DNA of 64,000 bases from an uncultured Gammaproteobacteria bacterium (GTDB taxonomy: Bacteria; Patescibacteriota; Patescibacteriia; SBBC01; CAIJZX01), in assembly GCA_964518425.1 (NCBI GenBank), contig CAZFGG010000004.1, positions 5,701-69,700 on the forward strand, in the 5' to 3' direction. The notes beneath the pieces are model-generated. The model worked only from the letters and a program-made list of their open reading frames with translations, was not told the origin of the DNA and did no database searches. A program made the translations under genes and the position numbers. Of this stretch, positions 4,118 to 64,000 are shown piece after piece; position 1 is the first letter of the stretch, and every line of letters starts with the position of its first letter.

Positions 4118-4137
4118 CTGCGTCAGTTCTCTAACTA

Positions 4138-4166: not shown

Positions 4167-4176
4167 ATTGAACGTA

Positions 4177-42357: not shown

Positions 42358-42525
42358 TGGCTCCGGGGGTCGGATTTACGACCCTGGGCAGCGGCGACTT
42401 GCCACTGGCAACTCGCCGGCCGCTCGAACTTCGCTTCGCTCGTTCTTGCTTCTGCCCTTCGAATCCGCCCAATCCAGATTGCGAAGACGGACGACACAAG
42501 GTCGTCCGCTTTCGCAATGGCTCCG
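42358..42525. other. GC-rich, stop-codon-free structured intergenic element (three strong hairpins, flanking 8-nt direct repeat) at the left edge of the GC-rich island
   Basis: Hairpins: 42367-42384 (GGGTCG-gattta-CGACCC); 42393-42417 (GGCGACTTGCCA-c-TGGCAACTCGCC); 42479-42517 (17-bp imperfect stem, loop acaag). 'tggctccg' occurs at 42358-65 and 42518-25. Six overlapping non-coding ORFs in the track reflect the absence of stop codons. Confidence 0.5.
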
Positions 42526-42649
42526 CCTCGTGGACGACGTCAGAACTTGGTTCCTGACGACCACAAAATATTTCAAGATTCCGGAGCTGGATCAGGTCAG
42601 TGCTCCACGCGATGCGCAGGCTGCCTAGGGGCCGAGCCGACGCTACGTG

Positions 42650-43081
42650 TCAGCCGTTGATCAGCGTGGACAACCAGACGAGGACGACCACGGTGATGAC
42701 GATGATGACGATGTTCGTCCGCATCTGACGGACGGCGAGCTTGTCGGTCTTCTTCGGATCGAGGAATTGCTCGAACTTGGCGATCGCCTCCGGGTCGCCA
42801 GTTGGGGCCAGTGTCCCGTCCGACCTGAGCGCAACCGTCAGCCTGAGGTTCCGGGCTGGTCGGCGGGGAAAGGCAAGGTAGATCAGCCCAGGGATCACGC
42901 CGAGGAGGAGCAGGATCGCAGCGACGAGGCAGCTCGCGCCGTCGGCGGGCACGGACCGCTCGTAGCGGATGAGGTCCGGCCGACGGTCGAGTAGGACCCA
43001 GCCCCTACCCCACTTCTCAGTGTTCATGAACTCTTCGAACTCGGCGAGGGCGTGGTTGGTGGCTGGTGGTGCGGTGGACAT
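42650..43081 (-). CDS. Hypothetical membrane protein
   Basis: Two TM segments ('LVAAILLLLGVIPGLIYLAF' and 'IVIIVITVVVLVWL'). GC-rich. Confidence 0.4.
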   Translation of the reverse strand: MSTAPPATNHALAEFEEFMNTEKWGRGWVLLDRRPDLIRYERSVPADGASCLVAAILLLLGVIPGLIYLAFPRRPARNLRLTVALRSDGTLAPTGDPEAIAKFEQFLDPKKTDKLAVRQMRTNIVIIVITVVVLVWLSTLING

Positions 43082-46738: not shown

Positions 46739-46873
46739 GCGGGGTGGTTTGGCCGACGTTGTCTACCTAAGACACGGCTGCACGTCTTCACCGCAGCAAC
46801 CCTCGGCCGCTCTTTGACAATTGGACGTGCGGATCCGTCCGTGCGCCCAAACACAACCCAAAGGAGGGTCGTC

Positions 46874-49189
46874 GTGAGACGGATGTGCTGTCTGTTTGTC
46901 GTGGGCGCGTCACTTTTCCTCAGTGTGCCGCGGTCCGCGCAGGCTACGTGCCCTGGAAACTGGGGTGATTCGCTCGCCACCTACCGCAGCGTGGTGGCCA
47001 ACTCGAACGGCACGGACGTTGGCTGTTCGAATGGCAGCAGCTCGTACGGGTACAAGTATCAGTGCGTTGAGTTCGTGAAGCGCTTCTACGGAGAGGCGAT
47101 GCACTTCTCGTCAACGCCCTGGTCAGGTGACGGTGTCGACTACTATGGCTCCGCTGCCACCAAGGGATTGCGGCAGTTTGCTGACGGCGGGTCGGTGAAG
47201 CCCAAGGAGAACGATATCCTCTGCTTCTCCGGCAACACCTTCGGGCATGTCGGCATCATCACCGAGGTAGGCTCCAACTACGTCAAGATGATCGACCAAA
47301 ATCGCACCACCTCTGGGGGATCAAACAATCCGAAGCAATTGACCCTGAGCGGCCCGAGCGGTGGGTGGTCTATCTCGAGTTTCAGTGGCTCGTACCCCGT
47401 CCAAGGCTGGCTCCGAGGCTACACTTCGGACTACAAGGATCAGACACCCAGCGGCACCGCAACCCTCACACCAGGGCAGGCGCTGTACTTCAAGGTCCGG
47501 TACACGAACACGAGTCACGCCAACGCGCCGCATTGGAAGAACGACGGCGGGAGTCAGTCCGTCGAGCTGCGGTCATGCACGAGCACGGGAGTCGAGACGA
47601 GTTCTTTCCTGTACCCCGTGAGCGGTCAGACCACATGGCTTGATCCAACCGATCGCAAGCGCATCGTGCACATGACGGAATCGGACGTAGGAGGAAACAC
47701 GGGAGTCGCCACGTTTGAGTTCTGGGCCAAGGTCCCTGAGTCCGCGACGCTGGGGACGCACAACGTCTACTTCCGCCCCTACCATCAGTCTGGTCAATGG
47801 ATTGAGGAATGGGACGGGATGTACTTCTCAATCAATGTTGTTGCCCCAATACCCGATCCGGCGTACGGATTGATCCTTCGGAATCCCTCAACCGCCGAGT
47901 GGTGGACGAGGGTGTCGAACGGCTTGGCCTTCGCCTACCCGCCTGGAGCCAACACGCCAGCTGACCTTTGGATCTCCGGATGGGCTCTTGACGACGGCAG
48001 CTACACCTTCACTCCTTACGTCGGTGACTTAAACGGCGACACCTACGACGACCTGGTCGTCGAACGCAGTGACTGCAAGTGGTACGTAGCTTGGAACAAC
48101 CAAGACGGATCATTCACCTCGCAAGGATCACCGATTCTTAACCCGTGGGCCACGTCGCCGTCCCCTGGCAAATATTTCTTCTGGTTCACCAACGTGACCG
48201 GAGATGCCAAGGACGAGCTCCTGACCTACGATGCCTCTAACGGCAACTGGTACGTCTGTACGTTCAACACCAGCACGAATACCTTCGACAACTGCAGCAC
48301 CTGGTTGACGTGGGGTGGTGGTGTCGGAACGTTTCAGCCACTCGCCGGAGATTGGAATGGCGACGGCAAGAGCGATATCTGCCTGCGCAATCCATCCACC
48401 GGCAACCACTACGTCCGGTTATCCTCTGGCACTGGCTTCTACCAGGGCACGAACGACAACTGGATCGGCTGGGGCGCGGGCAGCGAGTTCATCCCGATCG
48501 TCGGAGACTGGAACGGCGACGGCAAGGACGACCTGATGCTATGGAAAACGTCCACCGGCGAGTGGTTCGTCCGAACGTCAGATGGCACGGCCTTCGTCTA
48601 CCCCTCGGGAAGCAACTCTCCGGCCGACCGCTGGATGGTCTGGGGCGATCCGAGCTACACGCTCTTTACGGGCGACTTCAATGATGACGGCAAGGTCGAC
48701 GTTGGATTACGGAATCCAAGCACTGGCGACCACTGGGTTCGCACCTCGACTGGCCTCGCCTTCACCCAACCCTCACCAGACAACTGGTTGGCAGGGTGGG
48801 GCGGTAGTTCCTACCAGCTGCTGACCGGACGGTTTGGCAACGGGGAGCTGGGCGGTGGGTTCTCGTTGCAGCCAGCGCCTCCTGAAGATGATCAGCCACC
48901 TCCGGCGGTGCCTCTGTCGTTCAGGATTTGGGTGGCACCAAATCCAACCACGTCGAATGCTACAGTCAACTTCGCCTTGCCGACGTCTGATCGGGCCAGC
49001 ATCTCGATCTACGACGTCAGTGGTCGTGAGGTAGCTCAGTTCCCCGAGGAACCCTATGGCGTCGGCCAGCACACGCTTACGTGGAGCAGGACCAGCCCCC
49101 GTGGAGGACGGGTGGCGGACGGCATCTACTTCCTGACGTTTCGGTCGACACTTCACACGATCAGCAAGAAGATCATTGTTCTCAACTGA
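46874..49189 (+). CDS. Secreted CHAP-domain amidase/peptidase with FG-GAP repeats and a T9SS-type C-terminal sorting domain
   Basis: SD AAGGAGG 6 nt before the GTG at 46874. Signal peptide 'MRRMCCLFVVGASLFLSVPRSAQA'. CHAP domain 'YQCVEFVKRFY...FGHVGII'. At least 5 FG-GAP units ('GDWNGDGKSD', 'GDFNDDGKVD'). C-terminus 'VAPNPTTSNATVNFALP...ISIYDVSGREVAQ...ADGIYFLTF...KKIIVLN' matches the Por_Secre_tail pattern. Confidence 0.7.
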   Translation: MRRMCCLFVVGASLFLSVPRSAQATCPGNWGDSLATYRSVVANSNGTDVGCSNGSSSYGYKYQCVEFVKRFYGEAMHFSSTPWSGDGVDYYGSAATKGLRQFADGGSVKPKENDILCFSGNTFGHVGIITEVGSNYVKMIDQNRTTSGGSNNPKQLTLSGPSGGWSISSFSGSYPVQGWLRGYTSDYKDQTPSGTATLTPGQALYFKVRYTNTSHANAPHWKNDGGSQSVELRSCTSTGVETSSFLYPVSGQTTWLDPTDRKRIVHMTESDVGGNTGVATFEFWAKVPESATLGTHNVYFRPYHQSGQWIEEWDGMYFSINVVAPIPDPAYGLILRNPSTAEWWTRVSNGLAFAYPPGANTPADLWISGWALDDGSYTFTPYVGDLNGDTYDDLVVERSDCKWYVAWNNQDGSFTSQGSPILNPWATSPSPGKYFFWFTNVTGDAKDELLTYDASNGNWYVCTFNTSTNTFDNCSTWLTWGGGVGTFQPLAGDWNGDGKSDICLRNPSTGNHYVRLSSGTGFYQGTNDNWIGWGAGSEFIPIVGDWNGDGKDDLMLWKTSTGEWFVRTSDGTAFVYPSGSNSPADRWMVWGDPSYTLFTGDFNDDGKVDVGLRNPSTGDHWVRTSTGLAFTQPSPDNWLAGWGGSSYQLLTGRFGNGELGGGFSLQPAPPEDDQPPPAVPLSFRIWVAPNPTTSNATVNFALPTSDRASISIYDVSGREVAQFPEEPYGVGQHTLTWSRTSPRGGRVADGIYFLTFRSTLHTISKKIIVLN

Positions 49190-49196
49190 ACCAAGT

Positions 49197-49235
49197 CCTC
49201 CCCCCCTCTGTTTAAGAGGTGGGGGAGTTTTTTTT
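49197..49235 (+). terminator. Rho-independent terminator (CCTCCCCCCCTCT-gtttaa-GAGGTGGGGGAG + T8)
   Basis: Long GC stem then TTTTTTTT. It separates the plus-strand CHAP gene from the convergent minus-strand array. Confidence 0.8.
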
Positions 49236-49319: not shown

Positions 49320-50222
49320 TCAGATCGAGTGATGAACGACCAAGAGGATCGCGGCAGAGGTGGCGTTGATCGCATACTCGGCCTGCGCGGCAGTCACGCT
49401 GCGCGGCTGCGTGCCACCACCGTGGGAGGTGCTCAGGCGATTTCTCATCGTCGCGACCAAGAGCAGCGGCTGCTCGAAAAAGGTTTCCAGGCCAGAGTTC
49501 TTGATCACAGCGTCGAGAAGAGGCTTCGCGGTATCGGTCGGCTGAAAGGGCAAACCCTTGATCGTGCAGACAATTTTGAGCACGCTCTCAAACGCGCTGC
49601 CACACTTGGTCAGGCAGTCGCCGTAGTCGCCCTTGCGAAAATCTTCCAGGGCCTGCAGAAATTCTTTGTTCGCCGCCCCGAACCGCCCATCAGCGAGTAG
49701 TTCAAGCGTGGGACCGACAGCCATGGCGTGGACCACCTGGGAGTCTTTCCGGATCACCCGGGGAAACTCCGCGACCCGCTGCGCCTTTCCGCCTGGCCAA
49801 TCAGACGGTACCTCTTCCCACACATGCTGGGTAAGGGCGTAGGGCAGGTCGTCACGCTGAAGGAATACGTTGATGCTCTCGATCAGCGGCTCGAGCGCAT
49901 GGACCCACCTACCCTCGCCGTGGCGGAAGATCATCTCCAGTGCATCGAGAAACTGTGGGTCAGAGCATTGCATGAGCCAGCGACCCGCTTCATCGCGAGG
50001 ATCACTGCCCCTCACTCCGAGGGTCATCGTGCCTTGGAGGTACGCCAGTCGCTTCCACAGGTCCGTCCACGCGGCACCTTCGATGCCGGCTTGGGCAACG
50101 ACCTCCTGGAAGCGCATCAGGACGCGGGTGCGAAACTCCGTGGTCAATGGCTTCAGCGTCACGTTGGTCGGCGCGTGGGTGGGTCGTCGCGAGAACACAT
50201 CGAAGAGCTTAGAGAACTCCAC
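49320..50222 (-). CDS. AbiJ-like abortive-infection protein with C-terminal Abi_C/HEPN domain (gene D of the four-gene operon)
   Basis: C-terminus 'LLLVATMRNRLSTSHGGG...AAQAEYAINATSAAILLV': Rx6H HEPN motif in the RN..(S/A)HG context typical of Abi_C. Confidence 0.6.
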   Translation of the reverse strand: MEFSKLFDVFSRRPTHAPTNVTLKPLTTEFRTRVLMRFQEVVAQAGIEGAAWTDLWKRLAYLQGTMTLGVRGSDPRDEAGRWLMQCSDPQFLDALEMIFRHGEGRWVHALEPLIESINVFLQRDDLPYALTQHVWEEVPSDWPGGKAQRVAEFPRVIRKDSQVVHAMAVGPTLELLADGRFGAANKEFLQALEDFRKGDYGDCLTKCGSAFESVLKIVCTIKGLPFQPTDTAKPLLDAVIKNSGLETFFEQPLLLVATMRNRLSTSHGGGTQPRSVTAAQAEYAINATSAAILLVVHHSI

Positions 50223-50254: not shown

Positions 50255-51259
50255 TCACCCCGTCTGGACAAGCTCGGCGTCAAACTCGGCACGAACCTCG
50301 GCCAGCGTGAGTGGCTCGCCCCAAAGGTTCCGCCGCGCCTCTTCGGGCAAGGACCAGAAAGCACCAAGCGTCTGATCGTCCCTGAAATGTTCGCGAAGCA
50401 CCCCGTCGGAGAAGATACGCCGCAGGCAGAAGCGAGCGACGGCCTGCACTTCGTGGGCGAGCTGCAGGATTCTGATGATCGCCTCTTGACGAACCGGCAT
50501 CGCAACCGATTCGAGGCGATCGTTCAAGTGCTCCACGGCGCTTCGAACGTTGAACAGCGCGCGTGCCCATTCGTGCTCCCTCGGACCCACAAATAATTCT
50601 GTGCGGCTTGCGAACTGCGCTTCCGTCTTACCTCGCTCCGGAAGGATGCAGCCTTCGATGGCACGCACAAACTCATGGATGCGCTCGGCAGGATCCTCGG
50701 CCTGCAGCCCGGCATAGAAGCACTTGACGGTCGCCCGCAGTCGACGAAAACCTTGAAGGTCTTGAACAGCTCCAAGCGCGTTGCCAAGCGTGGCCGCTTC
50801 TTCTAGCTCGGCCTGACGGATCGGATCCCAAAGCACACCTTGGTTCCGAAGGAGTACCGGGACCCAGCCGTGCTGCCGCACATCGACATCTGTTCCGTGT
50901 GCGCCAGTCAGCACAATGCCCCGGCCACCGGTTGCAATGCGTGGCGCCGCCAGCATGAGTCCGTAGTAGAGCATGAACGCCCGCGTTTGGAGCGCGGCGT
51001 TTTCTCCGTCCAGAAGATCCGGGGCGCTCGTCGGAGCTACTGCCCAGAGAAAAAGGCTCGCCTTGTGAAGCTCATCCCACCCGAGCGACCCAAGCCAGCC
51101 CTTCCAGTGGTCAGGCACACTCAGAGTGATGGCACGGGTCGCATGCAACCCATCGCCGAGCGCCAAGACCTCCGGCACCGACTCATCAACTCCAACCGCG
51201 AGCGCGATGAGCGCGTACTTATGTGCGGGTGGCGGTAGGTCAGGGGGTTTGTTGCTCAT
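50255..51259 (-). CDS. Hypothetical protein, possible HEPN-like (gene C)
   Basis: 'ALFNVRSAVEHLND' has Rx4H in a helical context. Otherwise unrecognised. Its start overlaps the gene B stop (ATGA). Confidence 0.35.
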   Translation of the reverse strand: MSNKPPDLPPPAHKYALIALAVGVDESVPEVLALGDGLHATRAITLSVPDHWKGWLGSLGWDELHKASLFLWAVAPTSAPDLLDGENAALQTRAFMLYYGLMLAAPRIATGGRGIVLTGAHGTDVDVRQHGWVPVLLRNQGVLWDPIRQAELEEAATLGNALGAVQDLQGFRRLRATVKCFYAGLQAEDPAERIHEFVRAIEGCILPERGKTEAQFASRTELFVGPREHEWARALFNVRSAVEHLNDRLESVAMPVRQEAIIRILQLAHEVQAVARFCLRRIFSDGVLREHFRDDQTLGAFWSLPEEARRNLWGEPLTLAEVRAEFDAELVQTG

Positions 51260-52437
51260 GCTTCAGATCGGAGCAGGCCTGAATCCGTGTCCCACGCCGT
51301 CCCGAGGTCCTTGGTCACGCCGACCACGTAGCTGATTGCATGTTTTCGGCCGACTTCTCGCCGCGAGGTGTAGTGATCGACGACATGGGGCAGCGTTCTC
51401 AAGCCAGCCGCGAAGAGCGCCAAAGCTGATGGCAGATTGAGCAGCGTCACTGCCGCAAGAGACAACGTCGGCAGCTTCCAATCCAAGAGATCCTTGAGGA
51501 CACCGGCAAAGAGCCGATCACGCGCTGACCGGAGCTCGTTTCGATACGCCAACACTCGTGGCGCGATCTCAGTCGCCAAGATTCGCGGGACGGCGTCTGC
51601 CACTTGGTCCGGTCGCAGCTCATCGAGTCGAGCGGCCAGCGCGTTAAGTTCCACCAACCAGGCCTCGTAGGCGTCTTTGGTGGCGGCGCGGTAATCGAGG
51701 GTGTCCTTGACGCTCAACCGTTCGAGCGCGCCATCCGGAATCACGGCTCGCATGATCTCCAGCCCCAAGTACGGCGTGATCGATGAGGTTGTCTGAACGT
51801 AGCGTGGTGACCCAAGCCGAAGCGCGAGCAGTCGTCCAAAATATGCCTCGTCGCTAACCGGGATCGCCCCGATTCCCTCGGCGACCACCATCGCTGCCGT
51901 GACATGTACCGACGCCGTCATCAGCTCCCGTGCCAGAATGTCCCGCCGCGCCCTTTGCTCGCGCGCGTCAAACGCTGCGTCATGATCAGCCATGTCCCAC
52001 TGCGGCTCCAGTGGGCCGTCTCTGAGAGATCGATCTTCGGCCAATGCTCGGACGATGTCGCGGCCCTTGAGGGTCGTACCCCGAACAACAAAGTCGCCGT
52101 CGAGCGCGATAAATTTTCGCGCGAAGCGATCGTCGTTCAGCCCATCCAGGAATGTCGCGCGGAACTCTGGATTCGTCACGTCCGGCTCGAGATAGCGGTT
52201 CAAGAGCTCCCCAGGCGGGCCACCTGGGGCTGGGTGCACTGCGATGCGAACGGGGTCGCTCGCCCCGCTGACGACGCGACGAAAGAAGGAATCATGGCCG
52301 ACCATCCCCCAGTTACCGAACTTGACGGCCGGGTAGTCCATGAAATTGATCTCATCGGCGATCAGGTTCAGCCGTTTGAGCGTGGCGATGTCGCAGCCGC
52401 TCTCGCCGACATAGAGAAGCTTCATCTGCGGAGTCAT
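51256..52437 (-). CDS. Hypothetical protein (gene B)
   Basis: 393 aa with no recognisable motif. 4-nt overlaps with both neighbours indicate translational coupling. Confidence 0.4.
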   Translation of the reverse strand: MTPQMKLLYVGESGCDIATLKRLNLIADEINFMDYPAVKFGNWGMVGHDSFFRRVVSGASDPVRIAVHPAPGGPPGELLNRYLEPDVTNPEFRATFLDGLNDDRFARKFIALDGDFVVRGTTLKGRDIVRALAEDRSLRDGPLEPQWDMADHDAAFDAREQRARRDILARELMTASVHVTAAMVVAEGIGAIPVSDEAYFGRLLALRLGSPRYVQTTSSITPYLGLEIMRAVIPDGALERLSVKDTLDYRAATKDAYEAWLVELNALAARLDELRPDQVADAVPRILATEIAPRVLAYRNELRSARDRLFAGVLKDLLDWKLPTLSLAAVTLLNLPSALALFAAGLRTLPHVVDHYTSRREVGRKHAISYVVGVTKDLGTAWDTDSGLLRSEA

Positions 52438-53690
52438 ACGCGGTCCGGTTGATTGGGCGCAGGCACTTCAAACACGAGAACGGTCAGTAACACCTCACGG
52501 GCGGGATCGTCACGATGGTGGAGGGAGTAACGAAAACTGGTCTCCGCGAGCTTGGCGTGTTCGCGAACGAACTCGGGCCGAGCTCGAACGACCTCGGGGA
52601 CCTTTTCGAGGACTGTAGAAAGTTTTCGTCCTCGGTTGAAAAGCAGGATGGCGGTTTTTGTGTCGCGCCACGTCGTGTACCCCATGAGTTGGGTGATGGC
52701 AGCATCAAACGCCTTCGGCCCTTCCCAGAACTTGCACTCGCCGATGAAAATATTTCTTCCGCGGATGCGGATAAGAATGTCCGTCTTGCCTTCGAAGTTG
52801 AAGGTTTCGCCTGTCGCCTGACCCTCGAATTGGCCGTTGAGCTGAACCAGAAAGTGCTGCCGGATGGCTTCCTCATCCATGGTCCGAAAGGCTTCCGGAC
52901 TTTGCTCCATGACAGCCACCATGTTGCTCATGATCCGAAGGATTTGCTCGTAGGTCTCCATGTCGAGCATCGGCTCGAGCTGCCCCGCAGCCGTGAGATT
53001 CGGAGTGGGCGGCATCGGCAACTTGCGCTTCACCTCCGGCACGGCGAACGTTTGAGGTGCTCCCTCACGCCGGCGAACCGGGAATCCGAGGCCTGCCACC
53101 ACGTCCTGGCTTTTGATCAGCCGCTCGCGACGGGCGTCAATCCGCGCTTGGGCTTTCCCAGGGAGGCTCTCGTTGAACGGCGCCACGTCGGTCGCGATCG
53201 TCGCGACATATCCCTTGATGTTCGCGAGGTCGCGATCGAATTCACCCTTGACTGCCGCTGGATCGTGGTCGGTTCGCAGGTAGGTGAAGTGGAGCTCGCT
53301 GCCCTGAACCGCAGCCCGTGGTGGGTTGTAGGTGTAGCTCGAAGGCCGGCACGTGAGGAGCGGCGCATCGCCTGAGAACGGTAGGTAGTAGGTGATTTGC
53401 GTTGCATTGGCGTAGACCGGGCCTTCGCGGTCTCTGTAGAACGCGAAATTGTTCGGATCGCGGCTGACGTCCTTCCGGCTTTCGGTCTGGTCGACCTGGA
53501 TCCTGTCCTCGTGGAGGACAATCGGGTTGATTCGGTACTTTTCGGCGAAGTAGGCGGCCAACTTGTCGGGCGGCGTACCGAGGAGTTGCTTGGCGTCCAT
53601 CGCGTCGACCTCCTGGTTCATGGAGGCCTCCTGCGCCCGCATCGCGCCACCAAGGTCGTTCTTGCTGAAGAGGAAATCTTCGCGAGGCAT
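52434..53690 (-). CDS. PD-(D/E)xK nuclease-fold protein (gene A)
   Basis: C-terminal 'GETFNFEGKTDILIRIRGRNIFIGECKFW' reads as E...D...ExK. The ORF track extends to 53768 but would overlap the recombinase stop by 26 nt, so an internal Met (e.g. 'MPREDF') is preferred. Start uncertain. Confidence 0.5.
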   Translation of the reverse strand: MPREDFLFSKNDLGGAMRAQEASMNQEVDAMDAKQLLGTPPDKLAAYFAEKYRINPIVLHEDRIQVDQTESRKDVSRDPNNFAFYRDREGPVYANATQITYYLPFSGDAPLLTCRPSSYTYNPPRAAVQGSELHFTYLRTDHDPAAVKGEFDRDLANIKGYVATIATDVAPFNESLPGKAQARIDARRERLIKSQDVVAGLGFPVRRREGAPQTFAVPEVKRKLPMPPTPNLTAAGQLEPMLDMETYEQILRIMSNMVAVMEQSPEAFRTMDEEAIRQHFLVQLNGQFEGQATGETFNFEGKTDILIRIRGRNIFIGECKFWEGPKAFDAAITQLMGYTTWRDTKTAILLFNRGRKLSTVLEKVPEVVRARPEFVREHAKLAETSFRYSLHHRDDPAREVLLTVLVFEVPAPNQPDRV

Positions 53691-53742
53691 GCCGTCCTGA
53701 ATAATTTCGTAAGAGGTTGAGCAGTCGATCCTGAGATTCAAA

Positions 53743-55734
53743 CTATGCCGATGTGGTTGACCCGTCAAGAGTTACACCAACGGTCAGGGTTGTGTCCGTC
53801 GGGCCGAGGACGCCTTCAAGCTTGAGCAGCGTGAGTCGGGACGGCGTGTAGGTTCCTAGCTCCGTGTTTCGGATGGTCCTGACGTGGATCCTTGCCCGGC
53901 TTGCCAGGTCATCCTGAGTTAGCCCGAGGCGGAGCCTAGCCGCTCGGATCCGTCCGGGCAGCCCGTCTCGCTCAGGGACGAGTCCTGAGCCAAGGACCGA
54001 TTCGATTGCTGGCCAGCGGCGAGACAGGGGCACGTTGAGGCCACGTTCCCAGCCGGCCACGGTCTGATACCAGCACCCGAGTTTCTTGGCGAGGGTTTGT
54101 TGCGTCAGGCCGACATCCATCCGCCGCTGGCGAATCCGGTCGCCCAAGGTGACGGGGCAGTGCGGATAACCCCTTGGGAACACACGCGGTCTGGCAGCGG
54201 TCAGTCTGAGAGCGGTAAAAGGCAACGCAACAGTGAAGTTGTGTTGCCTTTTACCTACGTCTTCGGCGGAGCAGGGAAAGGGGCTAAGGTCAATCTCGAC
54301 AACCTCCTTTCCCACCTGGATCTTCTCGACGATGGCTTCGATGATGGCCTGCTTTTCCTCGGCGGTGAGGGTCGGCCAGCGGGCATAGAGGTCGCGGGTT
54401 TCGGAGAGGATCTCATCCCGGCCGAGGAACTGAACCTTCAGGAAGTCCAGCTCCCCCTGAAGCCTGGGCAGCTCCTCTTCCAAGCCCTTCAGCCGCTCTT
54501 CGAGCGGGCGATAGGTCCGGCCGAATCCTTCGGGTGAAATCTGGTCGGTCACGTAGAGCCGATAGATCTTCTCCATCTCCTGCCGGACTTTGGTCAGGTC
54601 CCCATCCAGGCTGACGAGCCGCTCCTCCTTGGCTTTGATCTCCTCGTCAGCTTGCCCGAGGTGCCGAGCCACATCGTCGGGTGAAAGGAAGAAGTCCCGC
54701 AGCTGTTCATGGAAGACGGCTTCAAGATCGCCGACCGCGATCTTGTTCCGGCACCTTCGGCAGATGTATTTCCCGGCTTGGTAGCTGGCGTCGACGTACA
54801 TCTTGCCGCCACAGTGACAGTGGGCCACGCCAGCAAAGAGGTGGAGCGGCTTGCGCGCCGGTCGCTTCAGACGCTCTCGCTGCTGGTCGAGGATCGCCAG
54901 GCACGCCGCCCACGTCTCGGCCGGGATGATCGGTTCGACGGATGAGAGCACCCACTCATCCTGCGGCTTGAGCTTCCAGGCCTTCTTCTCTCCGAGCGAC
55001 TTCGTGTAGTTGGCCCGACGCGTGCCCTTGGCAATGGGATCACGCAGCAGCCGATCGATCGAGGTGTCAGAAAACTTTCCGCCACCCCGCGTGCGGTAGC
55101 CCTTCTCATTGAGTAGCCGGGCCACCGCTTTCTTGCGGCGGTGCTCGAGGAACAGCTCGTAGATGAGCTTGCGGATCGGCGCTTCCTGCGGGTCCGGCCG
55201 GAGCTGGCGGTCTTTCCACTGATAACCGAAGGGTGCAGCACCGCCGGTTGACTTGCCGAGCTTGGCGCGGATCGACACCGACGCGGCCACGCGCTCGCCG
55301 ATTTCCTCCCGCTCCCACTGCGCCATGGCCGCAATCATCGTGTAGAAGAGCCGGCCAGCCGGCGTCGAGGTGTCGATGGCCTCTTGGAGCGAGATGAGAT
55401 CGGCCCCGTCTCGCCGAAAAATATCCGCAAAGTCCAGCAGCTCTTTGGTGTTTCGCGCCAGCCGAGCCAGCTTTGAAAAAATCAGGCCTGTGATGTGGCC
55501 GCTGGCGATGTCCTGGAGCATCCGTTTCGCTTCTGGATGCCCCATCACGGATTTCCCGCTCACCGCTTCGAGGTGATAGACCTCGCGGATCTTCCAGCCC
55601 TTTGACTCGGCGTAGGCGCGGGCACGCCGTTCGTGATGCTCCGGGCTTTCGCCCCTGGCTTGGTCTTCGGTCGAGACGCGGATCCAGATCCCGACAGGCT
55701 TCGCCTGCTCGTGTGCCCCAGTCTTGGTGCCCAT
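53743..55734 (-). CDS. Large serine recombinase with two C-terminal XRE-family HTH domains
   Basis: Resolvase catalytic 'IWIRVSTEDQ', recombinase domain, zinc ribbon 'CHCGGKMYVDASYQAGKYICRRCRNK', coiled coil. Then 'LTQQTLAKKLGCWYQTVAGWERG' and 'LTQDDLASRARIHVRTIRNTELG' HTH_XRE-like units. Confidence 0.8.
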   Translation of the reverse strand: MGTKTGAHEQAKPVGIWIRVSTEDQARGESPEHHERRARAYAESKGWKIREVYHLEAVSGKSVMGHPEAKRMLQDIASGHITGLIFSKLARLARNTKELLDFADIFRRDGADLISLQEAIDTSTPAGRLFYTMIAAMAQWEREEIGERVAASVSIRAKLGKSTGGAAPFGYQWKDRQLRPDPQEAPIRKLIYELFLEHRRKKAVARLLNEKGYRTRGGGKFSDTSIDRLLRDPIAKGTRRANYTKSLGEKKAWKLKPQDEWVLSSVEPIIPAETWAACLAILDQQRERLKRPARKPLHLFAGVAHCHCGGKMYVDASYQAGKYICRRCRNKIAVGDLEAVFHEQLRDFFLSPDDVARHLGQADEEIKAKEERLVSLDGDLTKVRQEMEKIYRLYVTDQISPEGFGRTYRPLEERLKGLEEELPRLQGELDFLKVQFLGRDEILSETRDLYARWPTLTAEEKQAIIEAIVEKIQVGKEVVEIDLSPFPCSAEDVGKRQHNFTVALPFTALRLTAARPRVFPRGYPHCPVTLGDRIRQRRMDVGLTQQTLAKKLGCWYQTVAGWERGLNVPLSRRWPAIESVLGSGLVPERDGLPGRIRAARLRLGLTQDDLASRARIHVRTIRNTELGTYTPSRLTLLKLEGVLGPTDTTLTVGVTLDGSTTSA

Positions 55735-55740
55735 GGTTCC

Positions 55741-57003
55741 TTACACGCGGGGGCGTGCTTGTTTGCGCACTAGCTTCCGACCGTGAATCCGGTCGCGGCG
55801 GAACTTGAGTGCAGTCTGACGCACGGCGATCTCTGACTTCAACTTCGCTGCATCACGAGCCATTGAGAGAAATTGTCCGAGTTCTTCAAGATTTTCGAAC
55901 TTCCCGGAGAGCTGCATGGAAAACGTTAGGAGTTCGGCCACAAACCGATGGAGCTGCAAGGCAGCCTTGCGGGCATCGACACCACCCGTCCCGGAGTGCG
56001 CGGTGCCATTTCTCCGGTCACGAAGCATTTCCAAGACGTACCAGATCAGGGGTTCGTCCTCGTAAAGAAACCGGACTCGCTGGATCGTGGCGTCATAGCG
56101 ATCGCCGCCAGTAGCGGTCAGTGTTTCCAGCAGCGACCACAGCTGCAGAACCGTGACTTCGTGATCGACGCCATCCAAAGCCCGACAGTATCGGACCATG
56201 ATCCTTCGCAACTCTCGTCCGAGCGTTGTTTCCTTGATGGCGGCCCGGATGGCCGCGACCTGCTCAGCCATCCCCTGCCACTTTCCACTTAGATCGACAG
56301 AGAAGGAGTCCTTCACTGGGAAGAGCTCGTACCACCACACCTCTCCCGCTGGCTTTCCGTTCGGGAGATGCAGCGTGTGAATCGGGCCGATCCGGACTTG
56401 ATTGATCGGGACATTTTCGCGAGGGCCGAACTGACTCCACACCCGCCGGTTGAGAACGAAGTTCCAGATCCCTCGGACAAAATCTAGTCGCTCCAAACCG
56501 GCATCGAGCGCTTCGTTAATTGTCCGCGCGCGACCACTTACTCTGACGTGCGCCAGTCGAAGATGCTGCTCGCCGTACTCAGCCCACACATGCTCTGGCA
56601 CGTAGCTTCGATCGAAGCCCTTGGGCGGACCATCAGAAAAGGTCATGGTCCAACCGTCGAAGACCTGGCGAGTGAGTTTCGGGAAGTACCGGCACGATAG
56701 CGATGCCACGAGCACGAATGGCAGCTGTGGCTGAGCAAGGAAGCGGCGTGATCGACGGTCAAGCTCAGCCAGCAGGCGTGCTTTCGTAATGGCACCGGAC
56801 CCGGCGACCGTGGAAATAGCTTCCTGACAGAGGCCGAGCCGATCACGTTCCGACGTGGCCTCATCAAGCGGAGCGTGCACACTGAGTGAAGCGACGAGTT
56901 CATCGAACCAGGTTGAGTCAAACCCACCTGACGGCTTCTTGGCTCGCTCGAGTTCCTTGGCCACAATCTCCACGTCAACGATGCTCTTCAAATCGCGAGG
57001 CAT
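55741..57003 (-). CDS. HEPN (Abi_C / Swt1-like, RNxxAH) domain protein
   Basis: C-terminal 'YVLEMLRDRRNGTAHSGTGG' has R-N-x-x-A-H. The N-terminal ~300 aa are unrecognised. It lies 10 nt downstream of the HerA-like NTPase gene. Confidence 0.55.
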   Translation of the reverse strand: MPRDLKSIVDVEIVAKELERAKKPSGGFDSTWFDELVASLSVHAPLDEATSERDRLGLCQEAISTVAGSGAITKARLLAELDRRSRRFLAQPQLPFVLVASLSCRYFPKLTRQVFDGWTMTFSDGPPKGFDRSYVPEHVWAEYGEQHLRLAHVRVSGRARTINEALDAGLERLDFVRGIWNFVLNRRVWSQFGPRENVPINQVRIGPIHTLHLPNGKPAGEVWWYELFPVKDSFSVDLSGKWQGMAEQVAAIRAAIKETTLGRELRRIMVRYCRALDGVDHEVTVLQLWSLLETLTATGGDRYDATIQRVRFLYEDEPLIWYVLEMLRDRRNGTAHSGTGGVDARKAALQLHRFVAELLTFSMQLSGKFENLEELGQFLSMARDAAKLKSEIAVRQTALKFRRDRIHGRKLVRKQARPRV

Positions 57004-57013
57004 GCTACTTGGG

Positions 57014-60000
57014 TCATCCCTTCTTCTTTAGGCGGCGAAGGGCCTTAGCAATCACGGCCGACACCGCTCCATGCTTGGCTTCCTGTTCCTCGGCTTGCCC
57101 GGGACGGCGACGGACGCGGACGCGGTAACCGCGCACCGTCGACTCCTCGGCTGGTTGGAGCGAGTGCAGTCCACCGAGAAGATCAAGGACTTCCTCCGGG
57201 CTGACGAGGTGCACGCGCTCAAACTGTTCCGGGGTGAGCGCAGCCTTGGCCAGGGTGCGGATATGCCCGAGGCGACGCTTTTCCCCAGAAACTATCACCA
57301 CGAAGGAGAATCCTGCGGCCACACACTTCTGAAGATTTTGCGCCTCGTGCTCAGCCGGGGAGCTGACGACAATTTCGCAGGCGACCGACGTTCCATTCTT
57401 TCGAAGCGCAACATCCACACTCCCCAACCCATCGAGTACCGCTTCCTCGATCGTTGCGCCCCAGCCGTTCGCGAGTGCCCAGCGTCGAATGAGGTCTTGG
57501 AGGTACTTGTGCTGCGCACCGCCTCGTCCGGCCGTGGACGGAAGTGTCGCCGAATCGACGACCGAAGTGGTTGCCGCCACCGGTGGCAACGGTGAGCTGA
57601 CCGGAACGGGCCTCGCGTGTCGCGGTGAGGACGCTGGTGTCGGTTCCTCGACAGCTGCCGCCGGTGCATCTGCCTCCCGCCCGGACCGGATGATCGCTTC
57701 AATCTCGGCTCTGGGCCGGGCGTACTGCTCCCGTGATGCGGCAACAACCTTCGCCCGATTAGTTTCGGCGACTGCCTCGTCGAGAGCCGACAAGAGCGGA
57801 GTGCGAAGGTTGAAATCCCAATCGGCTCGTTCCACCCGGGCAATAGCTTCACCGGTGCCGAGATTCTGGAGGTCGTCAGCGTTGAAGCTGGAGAAGCCCT
57901 TCGCCAGAAGCCGAGCATCCTCGTCACCGACTCTGAAGGAGACACGCGTGGCTGGATTGGCGAGGACGGAGGCCAGCACGTCGCCACTGCGACTCTGGAG
58001 CTGTCGCAAGTCCTGGTGAGCAAGCACCAGTGCCAAGCCATACTTTCGAGCGCCGGAGAGAATCTGCGCCATCGAGGGGGTAACGAAGTGGTGGAATTCG
58101 TCGATGTAAAGGTAGAAGGGCCGGCGCTTCCCTTCGGCTACGTCTTGTCGGCTCATCGCCACCTGATGGAGCTTGGAGACGAGCAACGTCCCAAGCAGAT
58201 GTGCGTTTTCCTCGCCAATCGCCCCGTGCGAGAGCCGACAAAGAAGGATCTTTCCCTCGTCCATGACTCGCCGCAGGTCAAGCCGGCTATCTTGCTGGGC
58301 CACCATGTACCGGATCGGCTTTGGGCGAAGGAAGGAGTCGAGGCGCGTCAGAATCGGGGCCTGCGGTCGGCCACGCAGCAGCGGAAATTCTCGCTCCCAA
58401 AAATAAATGACGTCCGGGTCGCGAACGGTCTTGAGGAATTCCTTCCGGAATCGATCTTCGACCAGGAACCGCCGCAGGTCCACCAGCGTGCCGCCCTGCT
58501 CGCTTTCAACGAAGGCCAGCACGGCGTTCCCGAGCACGGACGTCATCTGGTCGCCCCAGCTCATGGACATGCGCTGGAACACCATCACGAGGTCTGATGA
58601 CAGGAGCGTTTTCTCGAGATCCGAGGCGGCCGAGAGGATGTTGAAGCCGATCGGGAACTCGGCATCTGCCGGGTCGAGCAAGATGACGTCTTGAAGACGG
58701 CCCTCAGGAACAAGGCCCAGAACGCGATCAATCAGATCGCCGTGAGGATCGAAGACGGCGAGGCCTTCGCCGTTCTCAAGGTCTTGTCGGATGAGATTCA
58801 GCAAGAGCGTAGACTTCCCAGTGCCGGATGCTCCGATGACGTACATGTGTCGCGATCGGTGATCGGCGGAGAGCCTGACCTCGTCCACCTGATCATCGTG
58901 GACGTTCTGTCCAAGGCAAACACCTTGGCTCAGGACGGACGGGGGTGCGGCCTTTGTCTTGTGTCCATGCCGCAGCAACCGCGGGTCGCGAACGCCACTG
59001 GTCGGCAGGTGCACGAGCGAGGCGAGCTCCTCGACACTCAGGAGCATGCCGCTGCGATGTGAGCGCCGGCCGAGGAGATCATCCTCGTGCTGCTGGGACG
59101 AGTAGTCACCGTCTGGCTGCAGCGGGATGAGTTCATTTGCGAGTGGATCGCTCAGGGCTCCCATGGCACCGGCCACCTGGCGTGCCACCGCTATCGCCCG
59201 CCCACGCGTTGGGCTCTTGATCCCGACCCGAATGACGCTGGCGAACAGCGGGCGCGCCACCTTCGCCTTGGCGAGGGCGGAGATCTCCGGCGCATCGATA
59301 AAAAACGGAGACCCCTGTTCGTCCAGAACCGCGCGCAATATTTCGCGTGCCCAAGGCTGGCGCGCTCGGCAGGCTAGTACCTGGAAGAGCCCTGCCTCAC
59401 CAGCCCGCAGATTGGAGAGTGCACCCACCACCCCAGCCAGCGGATCGACGTCAAATTTTCTTACCGCACGGAGGGGTACCATGAACTCGTGGGCCAAGCC
59501 GAAGTCCACTACGACGGCTTCACCGCCGAGCGCGTCCCACCTCGGGGCCACGGCTTCACGTCCCCGAGAAACGAGGATTTCGGGAAAGTAGGCCTTCAGG
59601 CATTGCGACAGAACCGGCTCGTCTTCGGCTGAACACGTGAACAACAGCCGGGTCGATTCTTCGGCTCCGAACAGCTCAAAGGCAATCGGGCCAATGGCGG
59701 TAGGAAGAGCGAGAAGGAACTGCTCGGCGGCCTCGCGAGAAACATCGAGATCCGGCGGCACAGCAACAAGCAGCTGTGCGATCTCTTCGTGCCCGCGCCA
59801 CCGACCAGGTGTCGGCTCGTCGAAACTGCTGTCTTCACTCGCCTCGGTCGGCCTGCCTCCAGATGTGCCGACGAGCCGATCCGTCAGACGACTTAAGAGT
59901 GTCGGGCGGCGACCATCATCGAGTCTGTCCGGTGACGTCGCGATCTGCGGAAAATAAAATGGCCTGAACGGCGGCTCAAGTTCGACCGGCTCTGGCCATA

Positions 60001-60067
60001 GCTGCCAACCGCGGCCTCGTCTTTCCCAGGCGTAGAAGTGATCAGTCAGCGACTCGATCGAAGACAC
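57014..60067 (-). CDS. HerA/FtsK-superfamily P-loop NTPase (DUF87/TraD-like core) with large N-terminal and C-terminal extensions
   Basis: Walker A 'VIGASGTGKSTLL', 'LAVFDPHGDLID', Walker B 'FYLYIDEFHHF', 'LALVLAHQDLRQL' (TraG-D_C-like). C-terminal 'SVDVALRKNGTSVACEIVVS' is restriction-endonuclease-like. 1017 aa. Confidence 0.65.
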   Translation of the reverse strand: MSSIESLTDHFYAWERRGRGWQLWPEPVELEPPFRPFYFPQIATSPDRLDDGRRPTLLSRLTDRLVGTSGGRPTEASEDSSFDEPTPGRWRGHEEIAQLLVAVPPDLDVSREAAEQFLLALPTAIGPIAFELFGAEESTRLLFTCSAEDEPVLSQCLKAYFPEILVSRGREAVAPRWDALGGEAVVVDFGLAHEFMVPLRAVRKFDVDPLAGVVGALSNLRAGEAGLFQVLACRARQPWAREILRAVLDEQGSPFFIDAPEISALAKAKVARPLFASVIRVGIKSPTRGRAIAVARQVAGAMGALSDPLANELIPLQPDGDYSSQQHEDDLLGRRSHRSGMLLSVEELASLVHLPTSGVRDPRLLRHGHKTKAAPPSVLSQGVCLGQNVHDDQVDEVRLSADHRSRHMYVIGASGTGKSTLLLNLIRQDLENGEGLAVFDPHGDLIDRVLGLVPEGRLQDVILLDPADAEFPIGFNILSAASDLEKTLLSSDLVMVFQRMSMSWGDQMTSVLGNAVLAFVESEQGGTLVDLRRFLVEDRFRKEFLKTVRDPDVIYFWEREFPLLRGRPQAPILTRLDSFLRPKPIRYMVAQQDSRLDLRRVMDEGKILLCRLSHGAIGEENAHLLGTLLVSKLHQVAMSRQDVAEGKRRPFYLYIDEFHHFVTPSMAQILSGARKYGLALVLAHQDLRQLQSRSGDVLASVLANPATRVSFRVGDEDARLLAKGFSSFNADDLQNLGTGEAIARVERADWDFNLRTPLLSALDEAVAETNRAKVVAASREQYARPRAEIEAIIRSGREADAPAAAVEEPTPASSPRHARPVPVSSPLPPVAATTSVVDSATLPSTAGRGGAQHKYLQDLIRRWALANGWGATIEEAVLDGLGSVDVALRKNGTSVACEIVVSSPAEHEAQNLQKCVAAGFSFVVIVSGEKRRLGHIRTLAKAALTPEQFERVHLVSPEEVLDLLGGLHSLQPAEESTVRGYRVRVRRRPGQAEEQEAKHGAVSAVIAKALRRLKKKG

Positions 60068-61272: not shown

Positions 61273-62082
61273 TTAGGTCGACTGCGCCGTCGCACCGACC
61301 ATCATGGGTTCCAGCTTCCGAGTCGTCCGGCCGTCAAGCAACTCACGCATGATCGGCTTCCGCTCGTCTTCCTGCAGGGCGCGCATACCCTTGGCGGTCA
61401 TCAGCCCATCGATGCATTCCTGTACCGCCGCGTGGATTGCCGAGCGGAACATGATGGCCGTGTCGAGTCGGTAGTAGGTCACCGGGGCAAACAGCCACCG
61501 ATAGATCCCGCCAACGATCGGAATGGCGAGCATCGCGTTTTCAGCGTTTACACGCCCGAGACGAGCAGCCAGCGCGACCAAAGCCATGACAGCCCAGGGC
61601 GACAGGCCCCAGACAATCAGGAAGAACGGAAGCGACGTGGAAGGGCTGTTGAAGAGGTGTACTCCGAACATCGACGGCCTCCACCAGAGCACGCGAATGT
61701 TCGACAATGCAGACGGGAACATCTTCAACACGAACCAGATGGACTTGGCGAGCAGCCAGGTGGCTGCTACGAAGACGGCTGCCCACGCCGGTACCCACGA
61801 AGCCGGTTTTTTCACGAGCCACCAAGAGAAGAAGAAGCCGGTCCCGAATGGCGCTGCGCACAGGTCAAAAGCGACACGCCCGTCGGTCATGCGGAGGTAC
61901 TCACGCTTTGGCGAGAGCGCACCACCCTCGTTCCAAATGATTCGATGGGTCTTCAGGCCGGGAATGCGGCGGTGAGCGAGGGCGGATTGGACCGAGGAGT
62001 AAAACTCTTTCGACGAGGTTTCAAAATTTTCGATCAGCTTGTTCCAGTTCGACAGGACATCATCCAGCGGGTGCTTTGCCAT
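61273..62082 (-). CDS. Hypothetical membrane protein
   Basis: 269 aa with several TM helices ('FFFSWWLVKKPASWVPAWAAVFVAATWLLAKSIWFVL'). Confidence 0.4.
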   Translation of the reverse strand: MAKHPLDDVLSNWNKLIENFETSSKEFYSSVQSALAHRRIPGLKTHRIIWNEGGALSPKREYLRMTDGRVAFDLCAAPFGTGFFFSWWLVKKPASWVPAWAAVFVAATWLLAKSIWFVLKMFPSALSNIRVLWWRPSMFGVHLFNSPSTSLPFFLIVWGLSPWAVMALVALAARLGRVNAENAMLAIPIVGGIYRWLFAPVTYYRLDTAIMFRSAIHAAVQECIDGLMTAKGMRALQEDERKPIMRELLDGRTTRKLEPMMVGATAQST

Positions 62083-62231: not shown

Positions 62232-64000
62232 TTACGCCGCCGGCTGATAGAGGAACTTCTGGAACCCGGCGAAAACTCGGCCAATTTCCTCCGGTTCGCC
62301 GAGGTCGGTCACCGCGTCATTGATGGAGTCGTGGTACTTGAGCCGCAGCAGCGGCGTCAACTTCGACTGGTCAAGCTCCTCCACGCCCACGGTCACGTAG
62401 TGCGAGAGCACGAAGTCCAGAAACGCCTGCTGCTTCGCGGTGAAGTGAGCCGCGATCTCCACCTTGGCTTTCAGTGCTCGCGCTTCGCGCGTGACGGGAG
62501 CGAACGCGTAGGCGACATAAGCCAACACGTCGAACAGGTCGCTTTTCTCCGCGTCGATAATTTTCTGCATCTCCGCGAGCTGTTCCCGTCCAAAACCACG
62601 TTCGGCCAAGCCCTGTAGCAGTCTTGCGCGCGTATCCGGCGCGCTCCAGATGGCTCGCAGTTCGGCTTCATCCCTGAAGAACTCAGGTAGTTTACCGAAG
62701 AGCGTTTCCATGAACTGCTGTGCTGACATCGGCGTGCCGTCTGGATGCCAGAACGTCGTGACCATCATGTGCTGGATGTTGCGCGCCTTGCCGTCAGCGA
62801 GCTTGACCTTGACCTTCGTGCGCGGCGGCACTGGATCCGGCGCTGGTCCTGGCGTGGGCGGAGGCGATAGCGGACCCGGCCCGGGCGAGACAGGTTTCGG
62901 TTCCGGCTCGACAGGCTCGCCATCCCACTCTCGATCACTGAAGTGGTGGTACGCCTTCACGAAATCGTAAATCGTGAAGTAGTCCTTTCCATCGTAGAGG
63001 CGCGTGCCTCGCCCGATGATCTGCTTGAACTCGATCATCGAGTTGATTGGACGCATCAGGACGATGTTGCGAACGTTGCGCGCGTCCACACCGGTCGAGA
63101 GTTTCTGGGAGGTCGTGAGGATGGTTGGCACGAGCTTCTCGTTGTCCTGGAAGTCGCGCAGGTGCTGGTCACCGAGCGCTCCGTCATTGGCCGTGACCCG
63201 GTGGCAGTAGTTCGGGTCCTTGCTCGACTTTATCTGGTTGATCAGATCACGAACCGCAAGGGCGTGATCCTGAGTGGCGCAAAACACGAGCGTTTTGTCG
63301 TTCTGGTTGATCTGGTCCATAAATATTTTGACCCGATGCGCCTCGCGCTCCTTGATCTCGATGATCTTGTTGAACTCGGTCTCCGTGTACACCTTGCCGC
63401 TCTCGACCTCTCCTTCCACGAGCTGGTCATCCGGCGTGTAGACGTACTCGTCGAGCGTGGTCGAGATCTGCTTCACTTTGAACGGGGTCAGGAAACCGTC
63501 GTTGATCCCGTCCTTGAGCGAGTAGATGTAGACCGGGTCGCCGAAGTAGGCGTAGGTGTCGACGTTGTCCTGTCGCTTCGGTGTGGCGGTCATGCCGAGC
63601 TGCACGGCGGGCGCGAAGTAGGTCAGGATGTCGCGCCAGTTGCTTTCGTCGTTGGCGCCTCCGCGGTGGCACTCGTCGATGACGATGAAGTCGAAGAAGT
63701 CCGGTGGGTACTCGCCGAAGTACGGACTGGGCTTGCCGTCCTTGGGCGGCCCGCTCATGAAGGTCTGAAAGATCGTGAAGAAGATGCTGCCGTTCTTCGG
63801 GACCCTGCCCTTCTTCCGGATGTCGCTCGGAGCTATGCGCACGAGCGCATCCTCAGGAAATGATGAGAAGGCGTTGTATGCCTGGTCGGCGAGGATGTTG
63901 CGATCCGCCAGGAAAAGAATGCGCGGACGCCGCGTCGGCTCGCCACTCAGGTTCCATCGCGAGTGAAACAGTTTCCACGCGATCTGAAACGCAATGAAGG
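62232..64000 (-). CDS. hsdR: Type I restriction enzyme R subunit (HsdR), C-terminal ~590 aa; N-terminal part beyond the window edge
   Basis: Helicase motif II 'FVIDECHRG', motif III 'GMTATP', 'YFGDPVYIYSLKDGINDGFLTPF', and an HsdR-specific C-terminal domain ('LFDVLAYVAYAFAPVTREARA'). The reading frame stays open to position 64000. Confidence 0.85.
   Translation of the reverse strand, partial: FIAFQIAWKLFHSRWNLSGEPTRRPRILFLADRNILADQAYNAFSSFPEDALVRIAPSDIRKKGRVPKNGSIFFTIFQTFMSGPPKDGKPSPYFGEYPPDFFDFIVIDECHRGGANDESNWRDILTYFAPAVQLGMTATPKRQDNVDTYAYFGDPVYIYSLKDGINDGFLTPFKVKQISTTLDEYVYTPDDQLVEGEVESGKVYTETEFNKIIEIKEREAHRVKIFMDQINQNDKTLVFCATQDHALAVRDLINQIKSSKDPNYCHRVTANDGALGDQHLRDFQDNEKLVPTILTTSQKLSTGVDARNVRNIVLMRPINSMIEFKQIIGRGTRLYDGKDYFTIYDFVKAYHHFSDREWDGEPVEPEPKPVSPGPGPLSPPPTPGPAPDPVPPRTKVKVKLADGKARNIQHMMVTTFWHPDGTPMSAQQFMETLFGKLPEFFRDEAELRAIWSAPDTRARLLQGLAERGFGREQLAEMQKIIDAEKSDLFDVLAYVAYAFAPVTREARALKAKVEIAAHFTAKQQAFLDFVLSHYVTVGVEELDQSKLTPLLRLKYHDSINDAVTDLGEPEEIGRVFAGFQKFLYQPAA

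Follow-up and report, generated by a model that had tools for sequence, protein, structure and literature searches.

A comM-targeting large serine integrase with a probable intragenic attP and a detachable helix-turn-helix tail

Introduction

What can a pair of repressor-like DNA-binding domains contribute at the end of a site-specific integrase? The question is raised by a gene for a large serine recombinase (LSR) ending in two XRE-type helix-turn-helix (HTH) domains, here called the LSR-HTH gene. It lies in a 64,000-nucleotide stretch of contig CAZFGG010000004.1 (assembly GCA_964518425.1, positions 5,701 to 69,700), which was analyzed at its full length and is referred to as the window. Directional control of serine integrases is an active question, and cryo-electron microscopy structures from 2025-2026 are among the Foldseek matches obtained here. 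When the domain and structure predictions are placed beside 164 related loci, cited below by their L numbers, the sequences point to an account of the gene that we hold with a probability of roughly 0.75: the gene encodes the integrase of a comM-targeting integrative element, its phage-type attachment site (attP) lies inside the gene itself, and insertion splits the integrase core from the tail.

Results

Domain organization and predicted structure

By sequence and predicted fold, the core of the window protein is a bona fide large serine integrase. The catalytic serine in RVSTEDQ and the recombinase domain named in a preliminary description of this DNA are borne out by Pfam matches (Table 1), and S21 is invariant among 48 aligned homologs, as are C306, C308, C325, and C328. 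An AlphaFold model built on the 48-homolog alignment (mean predicted local distance difference test score, pLDDT, 79) comprises the catalytic domain, the recombinase domain, zinc-ribbon strands at residues 304-333, and long coiled-coil helices at residues 334-455, in agreement with the Cys4 ribbon and coiled coil that had been described. The domain search proposed earlier thus recovered Resolvase, Recombinase, and HTH_3 but not Zn_ribbon_recom (PF13408), which gave no match to the window protein at E 0.01; the zinc ribbon is nevertheless supported by its four invariant cysteines and the modeled beta-strands. The comparison with characterized LSRs that had also been proposed gave matches of the core to the phiC31 and Bxb1 integrases, as well as to those of SPbeta and LI (Foldseek, best E 2e-20 for SPbeta, over about 550 alignment columns). 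The catalytic domain matches that of TP901-1 integrase by sequence (E 1.6e-18) and by Foldseek (root mean square deviation, rmsd, 2.3 Å), and in PHROGs residues 8-482 match the integrase family phrog_95 (E 3.5e-113), with the tail falling among transcriptional repressors or regulators.

The two C-terminal units of XRE/Cro type that had been read from the sequence are likewise confirmed. HTH_3 (PF01381) matches two stretches, residues 530-578 and 596-644 (Pfam, E 4.3e-17), and the model folds residues 530-581 and 592-643 into two four-helix units (pLDDT about 85-92). An HTH unit resembles the DNA-binding domains of the P22 c2 and 434 repressors (rmsd 1.6-1.7 Å), with further local fold matches to HipB and SinR (both Foldseek). 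Residues 487-505, which link core and tail, are disordered and form the sole long internal low-confidence stretch of the model.

A frameshift, or a separate HTH gene read as part of the recombinase, is ruled out by the single open reading frame (ORF) of the window gene and by the same one-ORF architecture in 43 homolog clusters. These 43, among the 120 best homolog clusters to which all cluster figures here refer, encode proteins of 633-708 residues with HTH Pfam families and are 54-61% identical to the window protein. The earlier view that canonical LSRs do not carry such domains therefore stands for the integrases of SPbeta, phiC31, Bxb1, LI, and TP901-1, which align over the core only, but the fusion itself is not rare.

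The integrase core at comM

The closest homologs have no tail. Clusters more than about 62% identical to the window protein (maximum 91%) encode proteins of about 500-600 residues that align to only the first 74-79% of the query and lack an HTH, and all of these tail-less relatives (62-91% identity) lose the alignment straight after the motif ..GKRQHN. Several of the short proteins continue past GKRQHN as Arg/Ala-rich sequence resembling read-through into foreign DNA, and in L004 this read-through overlaps a 3'-truncated ChlI/Mg_chelatase gene on the opposite strand. The core side was compared in 84 loci, 80 of them fetched from species-representative genomes. The DNA directly after the LSR core is, in 47 of these, the antisense N-terminal two-thirds of comM/yifB, ending ..FPARFMLAAAMNP, and the last ~11 codons and the stop of the short LSRs (..RDSWPPPA, then stop) are antisense comM. 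The identity of the target is given by a complete copy, which scores 672 bits against TIGR00368 (YifB/ComM; cutoff 362).

In these 47 relatives, the core is the very last gene of the element and borrows its stop codon from comM. The preliminary description, which had placed the gene within an island rather than at an element end, is accurate for the window but not for these relatives. All LSR domains (residues 1-487) stay on the core fragment after insertion, and the HTH tail alone is removed. The closest core relatives of the window protein (P0001-P0025, L004-L006) are all split in this way.

Some variants of the core junction were also seen. Two loci (L048 and L079) have the core joined to the C-terminal part of comM in sense orientation, that is, with the opposite insertion orientation, and in one exception to the usual target (L070, ~2540-2610) the core runs into tRNA-like sequence (GGGATTCGAACCC). 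Two contigs (L045 and L058) belong to metagenome-assembled genomes (MAGs) labeled archaeal (Thermoplasmatales, Thermococci), reflecting either real transfer or a binning error; L045 has the usual comM junction.

The orphan tail at comM

Were the core junction one end of an insertion made by recombination, the detached tail would be expected at the opposite end, beside the rest of comM. A scan of a metagenome collection using an alignment of tails only gave 600 pattern hits, of which 499 were confirmed; 80 loci were retained. Antisense comM residues ~349-511, the C-terminal third of the protein, lie directly against the tail ORF in 35 of these, and the tail ORF starts at the same CA dinucleotide as the core junction. 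An LSR core stands upstream of the tail in just one of the 80. Most of these comM-tail junctions (attL) have a stop codon 6 codons upstream of the tail and no ATG or GTG start, and 29 of 31 distinct orphan tails keep an open frame of 141-250 codons. As these frames are kept despite divergence to a median pairwise identity of 46%, selection on the re-joined gene is suggested.

Intact and split tails are not separable by descent. In 12 of 13 cases an intact tail has a split one as its nearest relative (up to 70% identity), and this interspersion indicates that the two are states of one system rather than separate clades. The closest tail relatives of the window (L085-L087, 46-47% identity) each adjoin the C-terminal part of comM; the tail of L086 has three HTH units in 248 residues. 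Contribution of the tail by the target gene was considered and is ruled out, as comM flanks both sides and the tail is element DNA.

A probable attachment site within the gene

The point at which core and tail part company coincides with a 42-bp palindrome in the window gene (Table 1). It encodes residues 494-507 (GKRQHNFTVALPFT), within the low-confidence linker, and its arms match at 17 of 18 positions, compared with a maximum of 13 in 300 shuffles. Seven other intact genes have an arm match of 15-18/18 and three more of 13-14/18. Homology of the window DNA to the tail-less, comM-inserted relatives ends at 54233/54234, the center of the palindrome, where the crossover dinucleotide CA (54235/54234) falls between codons F500 and T501.

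Consensus sequences were derived from 11 attP, 47 attR, and 35 attL loci and from the bacterial-type site (attB) of one complete comM. They read GGCAACgCAAC.T-CA-t.cctGCGTTGCC for attP, GGCAACgCAAC.t-CA-.GGaTTCAT.GC for attR, tAgCCGCAggGg-CA-tccctGCGTTGCC for attL, and GCCACAAGGG-CA-CGAGTTCATGGCGGC for attB (as the reverse complement of comM). All four concur on one crossover at the central CA, which in comM is the TG of the first Cys codon in AAMNP/CPCG (the slash marks the crossover); around it the comM attB reads ..GCCGCCATGAATCCC TG CCCGTGCGGC... On this evidence, the boundary between core and tail is the element's own attP, which the preliminary description had missed, and the aligned junctions indicate a short attP and attB recombined at a central dinucleotide to give hybrid attL and attR, as is the rule for LSRs. 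It follows that the two attP arms, when translated, give the conserved peptides GxRQ(H/R)N and ALPFC found where core and tail meet.

Palindromes are common as regulatory elements, and a similar small one lies upstream of the operon in L007; the palindrome could thus be a mere hairpin, operator, or terminator, with the tail-less relatives an independent clade that happens to end there. This is very hard to credit when 47 loci have the left arm next to one half of comM and 35 have the right arm next to the remaining half, as both junction types at the same central dinucleotide are the signature of site-specific recombination. One locus (L101) that might have represented an ancestral attP just after the gene was not relied on; its LSR is a pseudogene of a distant lineage.

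Intact copies and degenerate junctions

Several observations weigh against the proposal that the LSR-HTH gene belongs to an element that inserts into comM through its own intragenic attP. A circular form was not found, and nine complete short contigs with an intact gene show no terminal overlaps. The two junctions, attL and attR, are nearly always on separate contigs; both occur together only in L093, a contig of 2.7 kb that carries a degenerate insertion without a core. Around half of the loci found through the tail carry a left flank other than comM. The orphan tail may, moreover, be translated alone after integration: the P' arm always has an in-frame TTG (the Leu codon of ALPF), and in attL (e.g., L086:4260-5012) the antisense CPCG codons of comM place AGGGG about 10 nucleotides upstream of this TTG. 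Finally, the intact window copy and others (e.g., L001, on a 206-kb contig) are embedded in chromosome-like DNA, and the 64 kb of the window contain no comM, no second LSR core, and no extra half-site above chance.

The non-comM left flank is itself conserved over ~35 nucleotides, CGGTTCATGCTGATCGC..GATTCTCA (L089-L092, L096, L105, L136, L140, L144, L151, and others), and looks like the N-side arm of the comM site read in the sense direction. Upstream of this flank the DNA differs between loci, an IS21-like element and tyrosine integrases being among what is found there. At least some of these tails look, from their sequences, like re-formed junctions of degenerate elements.

Entry through an intragenic attP should split the gene, so some other process must have brought in or rebuilt the intact copies. 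The routes considered are a re-formed tandem or nested junction, a larger island moved by another recombinase, homologous recombination, and an assembly chimera. Extra half-sites that might mark island ends or inversion partners in the window were sought, and none was above chance.

The first of these routes would make the window gene a junction in a tandem or nested array, with the core of one element joined to the tail of the next and later deletions removing the rest together with comM. Re-formed P-P' junctions do exist in longer contigs (L113, of the same element type as L093), arrays of 2-3 diverged tail copies in a row are found in L136 and L144, and elements with their own complete comM (L033, L100, L145) would offer a fresh attB to a second element. 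We nonetheless find such an origin improbable for the window gene: neither a second core of the family nor a comM fragment is present over the 53 kb downstream of the gene in this DNA, or over 10 kb around the gene in 15 other intact loci, and the second LSR in L165/L166 is just 22% identical and belongs to another family.

The element-borne comM/yifB genes are complete (L033:8406-9941; L100, ~2715-4238; L145, ~2914-4437), and that of L033 encodes 511 residues and has 78% nucleotide identity to the disrupted host copy. Judged by these copies, the element-borne gene has the look of a substitute for the target that insertion inactivates, besides being a would-be source of a fresh attB.

It is also conceivable that the full-length protein is a fixed enzyme of a chromosomal defense island, its HTH pair permanent and serving target choice, directionality, or self-repression, with the palindrome disused at this locus. 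The gene is indeed intact within chromosomal DNA without comM in 64 kb; 43 of the 120 homolog clusters are intact, some of them on contigs of 68-206 kb; and the half-site palindromes in the promoter region of the upstream operon in L007 and L001 would fit self-regulation. We consider such a stable fusion unlikely, however. The palindrome does not look like a fossil, because its arms match at 17 of 18 positions; the closest relatives of both the core (up to 91%) and the tail (46-47%) are all split at comM; and intact and split tails are interspersed rather than forming clades of their own. Insertion of an element into comM through the intragenic attP thus remains the reading that we prefer.

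Genomic context and family distribution

The first 42 kb of the window are ordinary chromosome, with genes for UvrA, DnaG, RNase J, and a PEP-utilizing enzyme and two tRNAs. At 42400-42700 the GC content rises sharply, from about 0.52 to about 0.60, with values of about 0.45-0.53 before the step and about 0.59-0.68 after it. The last gene that clearly belongs to the island is about 7 kb away from this point; on the high-GC side of the step are a GT2 glycosyltransferase and a CHAP/FG-GAP protein with a type IX secretion system (T9SS) sorting domain (46814-49189). The LSR-HTH gene is part of a long string of minus-strand genes in a defense-rich island (Table 1), and a terminator-like hairpin (49205-49225) separates the AbiJ-like gene that ends the string from the convergent CHAP gene.

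Table 1. Features of the LSR-HTH gene and its neighborhood, in window coordinates
Feature	Position	Strand	Basis
HsdR, C-terminal part	62232-63842	-	EcoEI_R_C 1e-30; PADLOC REase_I 1.9e-88
Conserved partner, 269 aa, no family match	61273..62082	-	Usually directly upstream of ATPase
Conserved partner, 1017-aa TrwB/VirD4/HerA-like ATPase	57014..60067	-	Pfam TrwB_AAD_bind 4.1e-14
Variable insert between ATPase and LSR, 420 aa, no family match	55741..57003	-	Profile searches
Intact LSR-HTH gene, 663 aa, apparently the unrecombined attP-containing form	53743..55734	-	Single ORF from ATG
Resolvase catalytic domain, aa 16-161, nucleophile S21 in RVSTEDQ	55252..55689	-	Pfam PF00239 E 3.7e-32
Recombinase domain, aa 182-284	54883..55191	-	Pfam PF07508 E 5e-19
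Zinc ribbon, aa 304-333 (C306, C308, C325, C328), and inserted coiled coil, aa 334-455	54370..54825	-	Invariant Cys, model
Putative attP, 18-nt inverted repeat with 6-nt spacer, GGTAAAAGGCAACaCAAC-TTCACT-GTTGcGTTGCCTTTTACC, 42 bp	54214..54255	-	Repeat search
Two XRE/cI-type HTH domains, aa 530-581 and 592-643, putative detachable tail	53806..54147	-	Pfam, model
PDC-S54 candidate defense gene, directly after LSR	52434-53768, likely start 53690	-	PADLOC 1.8e-150, almost end to end
Two cargo genes, no assigned family	51256-52437 and 50255-51259	-	Co-directional after tail
AbiJ-like/STM4504-family gene, last of string	49320-50222	-	DUF7014 5.6e-12, Abi_C, NF046078 (STM4504/CBY_0614) 4.1e-29

Two of the neighboring genes, encoding the 269-residue protein and the ATPase, accompany the LSR in many loci across phyla and may serve in transfer, replication, or defense; the other genes of the string do not recur. 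By tblastn, the 269-residue gene is 37-52% identical in L001, L004, L007, L010, L013, L023, L025, L031, L036, L059, L069, and L073, and in the window two small genes stand between it and the ATPase gene. The ATPase, which also matches PADLOC mad8 (7.5e-24) and phrog_5156 (1.3e-55) and has a C-terminal end that is nuclease-like by eye, has homologs in many loci that adjoin the LSR or lie on the opposite strand after the tail; in some lineages both partners are found in this latter arrangement. L001 and L007 share only the three-gene block (269-residue gene, ATPase, LSR), at 78% nucleotide identity, with differing DNA on both sides.

The remaining genes of the island vary. The 420-residue insert has no tblastn match in any fetched locus, and L001 has nothing in the gap between ATPase and LSR, where L004 and L033 have other genes. 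None of the four minus-strand cargo genes between 49320 and 53768 recurs in the related loci. The HsdR ORF is without its N-terminal part and lies about 160 nucleotides from the window edge, so that the gene may extend upstream of the called GTG; no hsdM or hsdS partners are visible in the window.

Half-site-like palindromes are found about 80-95 nucleotides upstream of the 269-residue gene in L007 (6013-6037), L001 (~6045-6075), and L010 (~2625-2660). That of L007 reads GGCAACGCAA-CCCC-TTGCGTTGC, and that of L010 resembles a comM-arm plus P'-arm remnant; no similar palindrome was seen upstream of 62082 in the window. These could represent an operator for self-regulation or an old junction.

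A relative is encoded in at least 569 species-level genomes of many phyla, all of uncultured organisms, and all 80 kept loci are from MAGs. Identity within the family is 60% or more across many bacterial phyla, and the hosts are mostly bacteria. Look-ups of the identical protein for the LSR-HTH gene and two of its neighbors gave no record. A plasmid or phage origin was considered and set aside: on plasmids no relative exceeded 32% identity, and in viral contigs there were only three relatives, all without the tail.

Discussion

Proposed mechanism and role of the tail

In the mechanism that we propose from the compared loci, the attP palindrome recombines with the conserved comM site, strands being exchanged at the central CA. 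After insertion, the core lies at one end of the element and reads 11 codons of antisense comM before a stop. The tail ORF, in most cases lacking a start codon, lies at the opposite end, preceded by antisense comM. An integrated element would make an ordinary tail-less integrase. The elements presumably excise and re-form the gene, and the full-length LSR-HTH protein would be made only from an unrecombined copy, either a circle or a re-formed junction. It can be hypothesized that the tail is a state-specific module, whether a regulator of the repressor type or an additional arm for binding DNA.

The preliminary description had speculated that the tail couples recombination to a repressor-like function. 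This is plausible, and it gains indirect support because the tail is present only in the unrecombined state. Among the possible roles, we tentatively place first a repressor-type regulator that is lost on insertion, transcriptional regulation being the typical task of XRE/cI-type domains in mobile elements. An auxiliary DNA-binding arm, for attP x attB integration or for capturing the conserved comM site, comes second and is also conceivable. That the split itself has no role is the least likely of the three.

These observations may be of use in several settings. A natural integrase that would carry a C-terminal DNA-binding module before, and not after, integration amounts to a ready-made experiment on appended domains, site choice, and expression. 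A broad family with a highly conserved comM site is of interest for broad-host-range genome engineering, and the system bears on the interference of mobile elements with natural transformation, some copies carrying a spare comM. For annotation, ~510-residue "recombinase family proteins" beside a truncated comM and small orphan XRE ORFs at the other end would be two halves of one gene.

Comparison with known systems

In the literature searched, from which subscription journals were largely absent, we found no paper linking comM with a large serine recombinase and no description of a serine integrase whose attP is intragenic or whose HTH tail can be detached. The large serine integrases (SPbeta SprA, phiC31, Bxb1, Listeria LI/A118, TP901-1) share with the window protein the same domain order, including the inserted coiled coil, and likewise use a short palindromic attP of ~42 bp, cross over at a central dinucleotide, and insert into a host gene that encodes a protein. 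None of these enzymes is known to have its attP within the integrase ORF. The solved integrases resemble the window protein in sequence only over the core, and weakly there (E 1e-18 to 5e-6), and none of those matched (SPbeta, phiC31, Bxb1, LI, TP901-1) aligns to the C-terminal tandem HTH. The best NCBIfam matches are the SCCmec Ccr protein CcrB (126 bits, cut-off 900) and XisF (107 bits, cut-off 375); as these scores are far below the cut-offs, the window protein falls outside both families.

The AbaR islands, which move by transposition and not by a serine integrase, share the target gene comM with the present family but have no sequence relationship to the window LSR. In Acinetobacter baumannii, disruption of comM by these islands is reported to impair natural transformation, and this is proposed to protect the island from removal (PMC11441513).

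A precedent for an appended module is offered by the engineered phiC31 Int-gp3 fusion, in which a C-terminal add-on is reported to change which pair of sites the LSR recombines (PMC5737554). By this example, a C-terminal module can in principle set the directionality of an LSR. That fusion, as described there, is artificial and its add-on is a directionality factor, whereas the tail of the window protein is natural and of XRE HTH type.

The closest parallel to the split itself is found in the SSV-type "suicidal" integrases carried by archaeal viruses and plasmids (SSV1, pTN3, pT26-2), in which the att site lies in the ORF, integration splits the gene, and a full-length protein is possible only from an unintegrated copy (PMC8371274, PMC7253208). 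The sequences place the attachment site of the present family likewise inside the integrase ORF, where integration would split the gene. The SSV-type enzymes, however, are tyrosine recombinases, are described as exclusive to Archaea, and are thought to be inactivated by the split (PMC8371274). The window protein differs from their tyrosine fold and chemistry in being a serine recombinase; all of its LSR domains would stay together, with the accessory HTH tail alone being lost; and the hosts of the family are mostly bacteria rather than archaeal. In this respect, the system departs from the statement in that review that self-splitting integrases occur only in Archaea (PMC8371274). It may be suggested, as a tentative extension of our analysis, that the family is a serine counterpart of the archaeal self-splitting integrases, a broad-host-range group disabling or sometimes replacing comM, in which detachment of the HTH domains reports or controls the physical state of the element and the tail forms a built-in switch of directionality or expression.

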